From contig JAVRCJ020000054.1 of NCBI GenBank assembly GCA_034530875.2, positions 1 through 41,374 on the forward strand: a DNA stretch of 41,374 nt, given 5' to 3'. The position numbers and the translations under genes were made by a program. This DNA is from Nostoc sp. DedSLP01. GTDB taxonomy: Bacteria; Cyanobacteriota; Cyanobacteriia; Cyanobacteriales; Nostocaceae. Positions 38,275 to 41,374 of this stretch are shown here, piece after piece (position 1 is the first letter of the stretch; each line of letters opens with the position of its first letter). A model generated the notes under the pieces. The model did not search any database, was not told the DNA's origin, and saw only the letters and a list, made by a program, of their open reading frames with translations.

Positions 38275-38315
38275 AGGTAATTTAGTCAAGATCTTAACGC
38301 TACTAGATGCATTTT

Positions 38316-39506
38316 TCAGTCTAGAACTTTTTGGGATGCAATCAGCATTTTAAATAAAAGCTTGACTGCTTTAATTGCTACACGCATTCTTACTAGCTTG
38401 ACCGGCTTACCGAATGACTTTTGAGTATCTAAGAATTTACCCAACTGTTTTAACAGTGGGTTTGTCCGACGGCGGGCGGGTTCGACTGCACTAAAAACCC
38501 ATTGCCAAAGCGATCGCCTACACAATGCAGAGCCACCGCTAACTTTAGACTTGGAGATATCACCGCTAGACTCCTGGGAGGGGGCAACGCCCAAAGCCTT
38601 CTGGAATCTCCTCAGCGACAAGTGGCGTTTAGTTGGTTTACCTGATTTTCTGCCTTTGCGAATCTTAATTTCAGGCTTACCATCTTCCCCTAAGAAATTT
38701 TCTAAGGGGAAGATTTGCGAGAGGATAACAGCTTGTACCCGGTTCCCAAAATTGAACTTTTTAAAAATCTCGCGGTAATTACGAAACCTCTCATCCATAA
38801 GGATTTGGAGCAATTCATCCTCTATTAGCTGTTCCTCGCGTTGCAAATTACAAATGCGCTGCGCGTGAAACCTAACCGAATCAGTTAACCCTAGTCCAGC
38901 GGTGGCAGCATAAATACGATCGTATTTTTTACTTTCCCTCTCCCCGGCTAACCATCCCCACATCAGTGGTACTTTTCCAGATCGGCGTTCTGATTGAACA
39001 AGTGCAATTTCTGGAAACTGCCAAGCTAAATCTTGTCTAGCGCGGTTGATGATTGGGGATTGTATTCGATTTAAGTGGTTAAGTCTAAGAACTAATTCCC
39101 TCATTCTCGAAACCAATTTGTCCTTAATTTGGACAAATCGACTTAATTCACTACCATAATCAAACTGGTAACAGGCAAGTGCTAGCGAGTCAGCGTCATC
39201 ATCTTTGTCGGGTAGACCAAGTTGATTTTCGCGGTAATTTCTCAGCTGCTTGTGTCCAACCAGACGAATTTCTACTCCAATACGGGTTAAGTGTTCAGTC
39301 CAAAACCTTGAATAGTTAACCCCAGTAGGTTCAATTATGGCAATTTCTGGCTTGAGTGCTATTAGCCCAGTTAACCCGGCGCAATTATTTTCAAACTTGT
39401 AAAATCGACATTCATAATAAAATTCTCTTGGAGATACGGGCTTTTCCAAAAGTAAGCAGCAAGAAACGCTAGACTTGGAAACATCCAACCCTACAACTCT
39501 AGTCAT
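38316..39506 (-). CDS. IS110-family DEDD recombinase/transposase (bridge recombinase), intact
   Basis: RuvC-like DEDD residues in GLDVSK, IEPTG and KDDDAD; coiled-coil linker; Tnp domain [11 protein letters not shown] with the catalytic Ser, G...CRRSL and GKPVK..RVAIK; GAGGAG RBS at 39515-39520. Confidence 0.92.
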
Positions 39507-39530
39507 TTTGTTTTCTCCTCTAGGGTGTTG

Positions 39531-39797
39531 ATTGTGTCAAAAAGCTTGTGAATCACCCAAAGGCCCGCACAGCCTGATTCAGTCTCAAAGCAATCCCAGT
39601 GCTGTAAACGCTGGGAGACACAATTAAAAAACACAGGAGTAGCCGAGCTTATGAAAAATGAAAAGCCATAAGCTTAATTCACTGTAAAAACCCTAAGCTA
39701 CTTGTGTTATTTGCGGAACTGTTTTGGACACAACCCGCGACTCTGGGTAATCCCAGAGTTTCGGCTACTGTGTCAGGTAGCCCGCGCATGTGGCGCG
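39531..39797 (-). ncRNA. Candidate bridge/seek-type guide RNA upstream of the IS110 recombinase
   Basis: Near-continuous stems: 39531-38/39617-24 enclosing 39549-55/39575-81 and 39594-99/39611-16; 39630-43/39697-708 enclosing 39646-53/39667-74; 39740-47/39752-59; 39763-68/39777-82; 39783-87/39793-97. The position matches the IS110-group non-coding RNA. Expression is not shown. Confidence 0.65.
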
Positions 39798-39831
39798 ATC
39801 GCAATTTGAAAAACTGCAATTCATCAGGCGG

Positions 39832-40062
39832 TTATTCAGTTTCAATTTTTGGCAGTGTTGAATTTAAAGTCTTGAGAATTTTTGATATATGTTCTTCAAC
39901 ATATTCATTTTCTGGAACGGTTTCTTCCTCAAAGTGTGAAATTTCCTCAATGAGTTGATTGAGTTGAGATTTGGCTTTTAATAACGTGTGATAAGTGATG
40001 TAATAGCCCCAAGATGGATCTGGTTCGGGAATGTTCTTAGTTTCGGAATTTTTATTAGTCAT
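39832..40062 (-). CDS. Small hypothetical protein (mobile-element cargo)
   Basis: 76 aa from ATG 40062, helical, 7 bp after the previous gene. Confidence 0.65.
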   Translation of the reverse strand: MTNKNSETKNIPEPDPSWGYYITYHTLLKAKSQLNQLIEEISHFEEETVPENEYVEEHISKILKTLNSTLPKIETE

Positions 40063-40069
40063 AAATTGT

Positions 40070-40354
40070 TTAAGCCTCACGTTGTTCTAGAAATTGCAAT
40101 GCACCTGCAAGAATTTCCATTCTTTTAATGTCAGTAAGCTCATAATCAGTCATACTGATTATTGGATAATCACGCCGTTTGTACCTTAATTTCAGATGCC
40201 TGATGTGCATGGGTGGATATCCAAACGCACCTGGAATAATTTGTTCGCGAACTATTAAAACTCTTTTCTCTTCTGGAATTTCTTCGGAAGAAAAACCGTG
40301 TTTAGCTTCTTTGTCTAAATCGTAATAAACGATGTAATCTATTTTTTTGCTCAT
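40070..40354 (-). CDS. Small hypothetical protein (mobile-element cargo)
   Basis: 94 aa; ATGA overlap with the upstream gene at 40351-40354. Confidence 0.75.
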   Translation of the reverse strand: MSKKIDYIVYYDLDKEAKHGFSSEEIPEEKRVLIVREQIIPGAFGYPPMHIRHLKLRYKRRDYPIISMTDYELTDIKRMEILAGALQFLEQREA

Positions 40355-40614
40355 CTTCGGTTTTTTAAACGGTGATTATTACAATTGCAACGTTGCTCTA
40401 GGAGTGCTATGGCATCAACCCAAGCTTGCATAATTACTGTGGCATTCTCGCGCTTAAAAGCTTGCTTATCGCCGTTATGCCAGGTAACGATCGCAACAGG
40501 ATAACCGTGTGTTGCCTCGTCATATTCAAGTTGGCGAATTTGGGCCAGATTTATCCACCCGGCGCTGGGTGTTTTGCAGCTAAACACAGATGGGGTATTA
40601 ATAATGGTGTGCAT
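40351..40614 (-). CDS. Small hypothetical protein (phage/plasmid-like; GWINLAQIR motif)
   Basis: 87 aa, translationally coupled to the next ORF. Confidence 0.75.
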   Translation of the reverse strand: MHTIINTPSVFSCKTPSAGWINLAQIRQLEYDEATHGYPVAIVTWHNGDKQAFKRENATVIMQAWVDAIALLEQRCNCNNHRLKNRR

Positions 40615-40690
40615 GGTAAACTAATGCATGGTGAGCAATCCTGGCGATCGCAACTCCTCCATCACAAGCAATGCGATCGCTAATATTCAG

Positions 40691-40894
40691 TTAAAAATCC
40701 TCAACCTCTTGTCCTTGTTGGGGTGCAGGATTGCGAACGGCACCATAAAGCTGACCACTAACAAATGACATCAAGTGCTTGGCTTCAATTGCTGGATCGT
40801 CGCCTTCCTCAATAGTTGCAGTAGCCTGGAAAGTTTCGTTTTCAAAATTTCCCAGGTTTTTGACCCGTTTGTAAGTAATGGTTTCGATTTTCAT
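40691..40894 (-). CDS. Small phage-like hypothetical protein (KNLGNFENE motif)
   Basis: 67 aa; I.Y.R..NLGN(F/Y)E.E resembles small prophage early proteins (from memory, not searched). Confidence 0.75.
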   Translation of the reverse strand: MKIETITYKRVKNLGNFENETFQATATIEEGDDPAIEAKHLMSFVSGQLYGAVRNPAPQQGQEVEDF

Positions 40895-40978
40895 ATTTGT
40901 GTGCTATTTTTTACGTGCGAGGTAGCAATCCACAAAAAGCGATCGCTCTTGCGTTCTCCTAGCGATCGCTTTTGAAAC

Positions 40979-41164
40979 CTACCCTTGATTAGCTGGTTGG
41001 GGTTGATTGTCGAAAATCACATTAAATACCCCACCACCCATGCGGAGAATGCTTGCATAAGCATCGGCATCAGAGCGAGTACGAAATCGACAAACGCAAA
41101 CATTCTCACCAGTGGGCTTGCGTTCAAAAATTGCCCACGGTCTAATCTCATCGCGGTAAGTCAT
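40979..41164 (-). CDS. Small cyanobacterial mobilome-type protein (PW...RFR.R.DA motif)
   Basis: 61 aa, MTYRDEIRPWAI..RFRTRSDADAY..VIFD; resembles a recurrent cyanobacterial small-protein family. Confidence 0.75.
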   Translation of the reverse strand: MTYRDEIRPWAIFERKPTGENVCVCRFRTRSDADAYASILRMGGGVFNVIFDNQPQPANQG

Positions 41165-41374
41165 AATTCAAAATCCAAATATTTTCAAAAAAGACCAGCG
41201 CAAGTTCTACCAACTAACGCTGGTTTCCCTATAAATCCAAAAACATCTGAAACTGCCAGTTCAACGGGTACTGACAGATGCGAATAATGGTTGGGTTAGT
41301 TAGTGAGAAATTGTGATTTTCGTCTAAAGAAACCTCCTACGAGACAACAAAACTTGTGGCGTAACAAGTGATGA

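Follow-up and report, generated by a model that had tools for sequence, protein, structure and literature searches.

In the contig of Nostoc sp. DedSLP01 analysed here (JAVRCJ020000054.1, whose full 41,374 nt are called the window), the region directly upstream of an IS110-family recombinase gene reads as two RNAs in series, a hammerhead ribozyme followed by a bridge RNA (Table 1). Comparative sequence analysis suggests that the ribozyme processes the bridge RNA of a phage-like element of the 14-kb class, in which the IS110 recombinase at the right end would serve as integrase, and we put the probability of this reading at about 0.8. From the same comparisons, the 3′ part is very likely a bridge RNA, and the hammerhead is likely to be catalytically active.

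The minus-strand region from 39831 to 39507 folds with a minimum free energy (MFE) of -113.4 kcal/mol (z -4.82), and none of 100 shuffled sequences folded as low, which bears out the structured minus-strand RNA that a first-pass annotation had placed directly upstream of the recombinase. We gathered 80 related loci, almost every one of them from a filamentous cyanobacterium (deliberate sampling was confined to Cyanobacteriota), and aligned the upstream region of the window with those of 72 loci, leaving out eight in which the upstream sequence or the gene start was absent from the match. Conservation among these homologues sets in sharply at exactly 39831 and extends almost to the recombinase start codon. 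The four 5′ hairpins of the first-pass annotation exist (39820-39798, 39797-39783, 39782-39763 and 39758-39741) and are followed by a fifth (39738-39713), and its two large domains lie at about the limits it gave (39705-39633 and 39623-39532). Its single RNA of ~270 nt gave way to a region of 325 nt, in which a 93-nt 5′ fragment of the ribozyme precedes a product of 232 nt. The excess in size over the canonical bridge RNA comes mostly from the hammerhead, which it had not recognized.

Table 1. Features of the RNA region, the recombinase gene and the element in the window (all on the minus strand)
Feature	Positions	Strand	Remarks
Structured RNA region	39507..39831	minus	325 nt; between an 82-aa ORF and the 396-aa IS110-family recombinase
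Type I hammerhead ribozyme, whole, including pseudoknot partner	39727..39831	minus	Core and stems parsed; fold z -4.79
Stem I 5′ strand CCGC	39828..39831	minus	Abuts the stop codon of the 82-aa ORF; pairs with GCGG 39738-39735
Catalytic core C3-U4-G5-A6-N7-G8-A9 = CUGAUGA	39821..39827	minus	Conserved in parses
38-nt two-hairpin insertion between A9 and stem II	39783..39820	minus	Two of the four hairpins annotated earlier
Stem II and loop	39763..39782	minus	Loop bases 39774-39770 pair with 39731-39727 (pseudoknot)
G12-A13-A14, stem III, GUC triplet	39739..39762	minus	Predicted cleavage 39739/39738
Predicted 3′ cleavage product (bridge RNA and recombinase leader)	39507..39738	minus	232 nt up to the ATG
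5′ stem-loop of mature bridge RNA	39713..39738	minus	Window fold z only -2.19
Target-binding loop	39643..39693	minus	Left guide 39686-39678; right guide 39660-39653
Variable side hairpin with second UUUACAG	39595..39615	minus	Absent or different in homologues; dispensable
Donor-binding loop	39544..39591	minus	Left guide 39585-39578; right guide 39559-39550
CACCC segment	39523..39527	minus	Complementary to right donor guide; adjoins Shine-Dalgarno-like sequence 39520-39515
IS110-family recombinase, NF051857	38316..39506	minus	396 aa; D8, E59, D103, D106, S314
Right junction	38310..38323	minus	End TAGACT, core GAA (38317-38315), host flank AAATG; ~40 bp before tpiA
Right 3.06 kb of element	38315..41374	minus	The other 10.84 kb, with the left junction, on C16:1-10850, a contig of this genome
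Rightward operon of small co-oriented ORFs	39832..41164	minus	Ends at ribozyme; presumed transcript source

Hammerhead motif upstream of the recombinase

A pattern parse with the block order stem I strand, CUGANGA, hairpin, GAAA, hairpin, GUC and stem I partner found the motif in 63 of the 73 upstream regions including the window (61 distinct), a count that retains three parses (L033, L040 and L054) anchored on a wrong upstream CUGA. Among the 61 distinct parses the core is CUGANGA in 57, with U, C, A or G at N7, and CCGANGA in four, and the GUC triplet is present in 59; the window has CUGAUGA, GAAA and GUC. Eight of the ten missed regions are variants recognizable by eye, with an extra A in the core, a long stem III, C3U, a long insertion or a compensated stem I, while L061 has the motif in the alignment and L034 lacks it. 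A strict pairing descriptor matched 60 of the 73 close loci and 12 of 20 distant loci, and none of 93 reverse complements or 465 shuffled sequences. On visual inspection, a hammerhead is present in 17 of the 20 distant loci, the exceptions being L130, L138 and L139. When the whole genome of the strain (8.57 Mb) was scanned with the strict descriptor, 39831-39727 was the sole match, and 20 IS110-like loci below the family cut-off yielded one match, which has a non-canonical core.

Stems II and III, which are closed, each contain four pairs with double-sided changes. Stem I, the open one of the three, is 90.8% paired and has one-sided changes only in the 30-sequence alignment, and a compensatory variant of it occurs in L077, L143 and L145. 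The pseudoknot has at least five Watson-Crick pairs in 33 of the 61 distinct parses, against a null mean of 15.9 and a null maximum of 24. Three of its five pairs show double-sided changes, with several different complementary pairs across homologues; it is weak (three pairs or fewer) in 12 of the 61, and in the window it comprises 6 bp and is compensated. Such pseudoknots are described as a known activating contact of type I hammerheads in the accessible text of PMC3088659.

By established hammerhead geometry, the predicted cut coincides with the start of the 5′ stem-loop, and across loci 180-290 nt separate it from the start codon. The first three bases of this stem-loop are paired in the local MFE structure in 63 of 88 loci. 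The freed GCGG is able to pair with a CCGC further downstream in this stem-loop, an arrangement that would exclude hammerhead stem I.

The window hammerhead is a variant copy. Its A9-G10.1 junction is interrupted by 38 nt, which sets it apart from hammerheads with an uninterrupted junction; insertions of 28-39 nt after A9 are found in 14 of the 63 parsed loci including the window, and most others have none. Hammerheads can tolerate insertions at the junction between A9 and stem II. Moreover, stem I of the window has only 4 bp, and the window MFE structure closes the junction through core bases, not as in the active fold. Rfam hammerhead models gave no match in the window, even at E values up to 10, and none in 12 homologous loci; L131 scores 18.5 bits with Rfam Hammerhead_1, against a gathering threshold of 34.

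The ribozyme is not universal in the family, because L138 and L149 have kept guide-like loops and lost the ribozyme, L130 has another structure and L034 has neither ribozyme nor guide-like loops. At L130:4300-4670, different strong hairpins without an Rfam match occupy the usual place of the hammerhead, and they are possibly a decayed hammerhead or another processing element. L137, a paralogue of L130, has three hairpins within the core junction and a GUU triplet. Across the distant members L122-L137, the hammerhead is kept and the downstream guide architecture is much changed; L122 and L123 still obey the GAA-core rule given below, with matching flanks where these were found.

Recombinase, guide loops and target sites

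The recombinase scores 540 bits with NF051857 (cut-off 180) and is single-copy in the genome. In 18 proteins compared, D8, D103, D106 and S314 are invariant and E59 is nearly so, the DEDD and serine set being compared with that of IS621. A family profile finds the structures of ISCro4 and IS621 (E 1.8e-12 and 5.8e-10), and a single-sequence search of the PDB with the recombinase gave no match. The family occurs above cut-off in 39 of 401 cyanobacterial genomes sampled; searches with the recombinase returned two plasmid matches and confirmed no relative in the viral_contigs or phage collections. The last recombinase codons (38315-38332) are similar to the stretch that precedes tpiA elsewhere in the genus.

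After the predicted cut the RNA follows the IS621 plan. The earlier proposal of a variant guide RNA stands, although not the view that this guide is unlike the canonical bridge RNA. Both domains share one layout, in which a short outer stem, an internal loop (12 x 12 in the target domain and 12 x 13 in the donor domain) and a short inner stem follow each other; comparative analysis resolves what had been described as a long one-sided loop into a symmetric internal loop of 12 x 12, flanked by a short conserved stem on each side. In the joint structure on 30 aligned sequences, 94.6% of cells are paired and 20 of 43 pairs show double-sided changes, exceeding all 500 shuffles and all slid controls, with the score favoured by the structure having been derived from these same 30 sequences. 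Structural covariation among homologues, which the first-pass annotation had proposed as a check, is thus present. UUUACAG does occur twice (39688-39682 and 39608-39602), as was noted earlier, but it did not hold up as a meaningful shared motif. The first copy is the left target guide, and the second lies in a side hairpin that is missing from L006, L007, L012 and L072 and different in most relatives, so that the repeat is probably a coincidence.

The target loop of the window reads T-ACAGT-GAA-AAATG. These 14 nt are the exact empty site in the closest relative (G017/L082), and the target guides also match the left flank and the right flank of the window's element. Across loci, the site follows the rule T-N5-GAA-N5. 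With right junctions called from the element-end motif alone, without the guide, the right target guide matches the right flank exactly in 40 of 63 distinct cases (null mean 0.72, maximum 6) and at four or more of five positions in 48 (null mean 3.0); some of the 15 junctions that match at fewer than four positions are probably mis-called. The left target guide matches the left flank exactly in 14 of 19 cases (null maximum 6), two more fit by hand and one had no candidate. Sister recombinases were paired to remove kinship, and 30 of 32 pairs had differing guides. Among 206 differing positions, 180 match the element's own flank and nine match the sister's, so that covariation between loops and flanks, another check named earlier, is also found. 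In G207, two copies with the same guides occupy two sites, both of which fit the five programmable left positions, with a right-side mismatch at one. Counted in 59 loci without wobble pairs, the handshake-guide matches of either loop stayed inside the range given by shuffling.

For the donor loop, the left guide matches the right end of the element, and the right guide matches the left end with one bulged U. At all listed loci with a junction motif, the left donor guide and the right end are identical, in four versions, whereas the right donor guide, matching with one bulge, cannot covary because it is nearly invariant. A left end predicted from the unbulged donor guide was absent from the strain's own genome, from two other genomes and from the 10-kb flanks; the true left junction was reached through the empty site in G017, after which the bulged-U pairing was recognized. 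The IS621 donor guide also pairs discontinuously, according to the accessible text of PMC11208160. In 73 of 75 loci, at least four Watson-Crick pairs are possible between the CACCC segment and the right donor guide (shuffled-tail mean 38.9, maximum 50), and the segment shows compensatory changes in the distant loci L124-L127.

In L074, the five bases of the left target guide are identical to those at the right end of the window's subgroup, and the left flank of L074 resembles an element end; it is possible that this guide targets the ends of other elements. In L026, a second sequence resembling a donor loop lies ~1.26 kb upstream of the recombinase and may belong to a duplicated or orphan bridge RNA.

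Extent and cargo of the element

The upstream flank of the G017 empty site maps to contig C16 of the window's genome, and on that contig an identical run of six bases precedes the left junction. We infer from the empty site and the shared gene order that the window (C54) and C16 join across an assembly gap. The element of the window spans at least 13.9 kb with its left junction on another contig, in line with the earlier suggestion of a large element with an internal RNA. Nineteen delimited relatives measure 7.8-19.0 kb, 17 of them more than 12 kb (the left ends of L042 and L053 are uncertain), and their left ends lie 6.6-17.8 kb upstream of the recombinase, compared with at least 12 kb in the window's genome. 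The IS621 arrangement, in which a left-end bridge RNA has a circle-junction promoter, was not found here.

Judged by their genes, the elements appear to be phage-like integrative units, for which viral is a putative label. Leftward genes (among them collagen and tail-fibre-like ones), a mid-element tyrosine recombinase and leftward regulatory genes are followed by a rightward run of small ORFs, which ends in the ribozyme, the bridge RNA and the recombinase. The ORFs of the rightward operon in the window have no Pfam or PHROG matches. No capsid or replication protein was identified in the cargo, and searches for inovirus hallmarks gave no match, the cargo matches being to tail-fibre/collagen, integrase, RHH and weakly to ATPase only. 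The tyrosine recombinase, a 201-aa Phage_integrase protein (G000:C16:2971-3576, L101), is present in 29 of 34 sequence sets compared and perhaps resolves dimers. A 193-aa cargo protein (G000:C16:9158-9739, L101) has a predicted fold with pLDDT 85.9 and no structural match above Z 3.5 or below E 0.001; its nearest Atlas clusters are viral hypotheticals at 0.83, which we treat as a lead only. The fold of a 246-aa cargo protein gave weak winged-helix-type matches only, and two Atlas queries with cargo proteins returned no match at 0.9; we do not read these negative results as a sign of novelty.

The junction pattern had 89 hits (nine viral, plus 80 of 97 metagenome stretches), and in ten of them the predicted right-end-to-left-end junction lies directly 3′ of a recombinase gene, with left-end genes beyond the joined ends in two of the ten. 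None of the nine viral hits carried element genes. A target loop could be parsed in three joined-end contigs, and none of the three reads that junction. By their sequence these contigs appear to be circles or tandems; tandems are known by-products (10.1101/2025.10.25.684509, accessible part).

Further observations concern the element ends. In L050 (14885-15081 nt upstream of the ATG) and L053 (15158-15381), a ~200-bp unit stands in tandem at the left end of the element, bounded by the left end and a right-end-like sequence, and resembles a minimal non-autonomous element. L042 has two left-end motifs 132 bp apart. The contigs of L010, L067 and L079 start or stop within a few bases of element junctions, with a coverage of 851 for L010, and may reflect mixed integrated and excised or multicopy forms. 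The left target hexamer is TAnnnT in 16 of 47 loci (the window and 46 others), against 5.9% of T-N5-GAA sites in the strain's own genome; the right end of the element is also TAnnnT, and the next ORF is co-oriented in 14 of the 16 TAnnnT loci and 19 of the 31 others. TAnnnT agrees with the -10 consensus. Insertion may take place at -10 boxes, which the element would then restore, in the window for tpiA; alternatively, the bias may reflect a preference of the protein for a donor-like site.

Proposed maturation of the guide and comparison with known systems

In the proposed mechanism, the rightward operon would be transcribed through the ribozyme, which, once folded, would cut after GUC and detach the upstream ORFs. 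The new 5′ end would refold into the terminal stem-loop. Hammerhead cleavage leaves a 5′-OH on the 3′ product, and such an end on the bridge RNA would stabilise it. By analogy with IS621, the recombinase would bind both loops and recombine at the GAA core, either to release the element in circular form or to integrate that circle where a site matches. More speculatively, the same product could double as recombinase mRNA, and the pairing between the right donor guide and CACCC beside the ribosome-binding site could switch or couple the guide and messenger roles.

The ribozyme would take over from the junction promoter that sets the 5′ end of the IS621 bridge RNA; that promoter would be unusable here because the RNA is internal, more than 10 kb from the left end or circle junction. 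In 55 of 75 loci, no more than 15 nt separate stem I from the stop codon of an upstream co-oriented ORF, a count that is inflated because the counted stop is in some loci the UGA of the core itself. Since upstream ORFs stop near stem I, the simplest view is of an RNA that forms the end of an operon transcript and is freed by self-cleavage, and co-transcription with processing, the route first offered as an example, is judged likely. A promoter scan for the operon performed at or below chance and found no promoter. The accessible parts of the IS621 literature state that its RNA starts at the circle-junction promoter (PMC11208160) and that the integrated form has weak read-through transcription (PMC13626964). 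They also state that IS621 can excise with unprocessed read-through RNA (PMC13626964), which counts against ribozyme maturation of the guide.

The strongest competitor accepts an active ribozyme and assigns it to mRNA processing or expression control, where it would uncouple and stabilise the recombinase message while the bridge RNA works with an unprocessed 5′ end. Bacterial hammerheads often lie near integrase genes and have been proposed to cut phage transcripts into gene-length mRNAs (PMC3088659, accessible text), and both the read-through excision of IS621 and the loss of the ribozyme from L138 and L149 agree with such a role. The predicted cut, however, falls exactly on the first base of the bridge RNA 5′ stem-loop, and distant relatives retain the ribozyme at its position although their downstream guide architecture has changed. 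Furthermore, the ribozyme and the guide are interlocked because the pseudoknot partner lies inside that stem-loop, which also counts against it. We therefore consider message processing unlikely as the main role, though compatible with maturation of the guide. It is improbable that the hammerhead, or at least the window copy, has ceased to be catalytic and serves as a structural 5′ domain or spacer, with a host RNase or an internal promoter setting the 5′ end. The core-junction insertion, the short stem I and the absence of an Rfam score would fit this, as would core changes in some relatives, such as an extra A after A6 or U4C, given that the A6a insertion is reported to confer low hammerhead activity (PMC3088659, accessible text). 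Yet conservation follows a catalytic pattern, in which only N7 varies freely and GUC is almost constant, the insertion-bearing copies keep both core and triplet, and the window keeps its compensated pseudoknot.

Very little credence is due to a reading that makes the cargo tyrosine recombinase the actual integrase and reduces the IS110 gene and its RNA to a passenger insertion sequence. The wide occurrence of the 201-aa Phage_integrase protein speaks for it; against it, that protein is encoded in mid-element, no left end lies near the IS110 recombinase, both far-apart ends are spelled by RNA guides, and the two junctions of the window's element have only a short core in common. Equally hard to credit is the first reading taken literally, a single 270-nt guide built in a new way, in which the one-sided loop and the UUUACAG pair are functional. 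It draws on the double occurrence of the motif and the branched domains, and we rejected it as the second motif is unconserved, the loops are two-sided with readable guides and the 5′ part is a hammerhead. Ribozyme maturation of the bridge RNA thus remains our preferred reading. Its furthest extension is tentative, and we doubt it somewhat more than we believe it: the elements may constitute an undescribed family of small temperate cyanobacterial viruses with a ribozyme-matured guide, whose transcript is also the integrase mRNA under a guide-to-RBS switch, and whose guides are rapidly rewritten between sisters and often aimed at -10 boxes, which would be restored by the end of the element itself.

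Bridge RNAs, pseudoknotted hammerheads near prophage integrases (PMC3088659) and IS110 integrases of filamentous phages (PMC11437467) are known separately from the accessible parts of these sources. Full-text literature searches, which covered few subscription papers, did not find a hammerhead paired with a bridge RNA. The accessible text of 10.64898/2026.10.21.760802 treats bridge RNAs and a divergent hammerhead cluster separately, and this cluster may overlap the present family; that of 10.1101/2025.05.14.653916 does not contain the terms 'hammerhead', 'ribozyme' or 'cyanobact'. Element-boundary pipelines that scan 1 kb either side of the recombinase, as described in the accessible part of 10.64898/2026.10.21.760802, would miss ends such as these. 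The family offers bridge recombinases that naturally move 12-19 kb, together with dozens of natural guide-target pairs, which could be useful for cyanobacterial engineering.

As far as IS621 and ISCro4 are described in the accessible sections of PMC11208160, PMC11208158 and PMC13626964, the present system resembles them in an RNA upstream of a DEDD-Tnp recombinase with a catalytic DEDD and serine set, in the order 5′ stem-loop, target loop and donor loop, in a left guide on the 5′ side of each loop, in a shared core and in a right donor guide that pairs discontinuously. It differs in that the element is 8-19 kb rather than a compact insertion sequence, the RNA lies more than 10 kb from the left end and a natural hammerhead stands at its 5′ end. 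In addition, the core is GAA, position -6 is invariably T and the programmable target bases number only 5+5; the donor loop is part of a three-way junction, together with a 3′ segment whose sequence complements the donor guide, and handshake covariation was not detected in the 59 loci, wobble pairs being uncounted. With the type I hammerheads of bacteria and prophages (PMC3088659, accessible text; Rfam RF00163), the ribozyme shares its core, three stems, GUC, the contact that a pseudoknot makes between stem I and stem II and a location near integrase genes of prophage-like elements, already noted there. Unlike those, its predicted 3′ product is a guide RNA, the 5′ stem-loop of that guide also supplies the pseudoknot partner and the 3′ strand of stem I, a subgroup has two hairpins inserted after A9, and the ribozyme scores below Rfam thresholds.

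The filamentous prophages Neisseria Nf and Thermus phiOH16/Zuza (PMC11437467, accessible part) likewise have an IS110 recombinase, thought to integrate and excise the prophage, at one end of a multi-gene virus-like element. A bridge RNA or ribozyme is not described in that part of the source, and the cyanobacterial cargo differs in having no inovirus hallmark matches, in measuring mostly 12-19 kb and in being only putatively viral. If our reading is correct, the defined 5′ end of the bridge RNA would be explained without a junction promoter, excision would depend on an element-internal operon, and one class of bacterial hammerheads, whose roles are described as unclear (PMC3088659, accessible text), would gain a testable function. 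The window would then hold a natural self-cleaving ribozyme that matures the guide RNA of a programmable recombinase, a design otherwise present in the literature searched only as the engineered HDV ribozyme behind IS621 (PMC11208160, accessible text).
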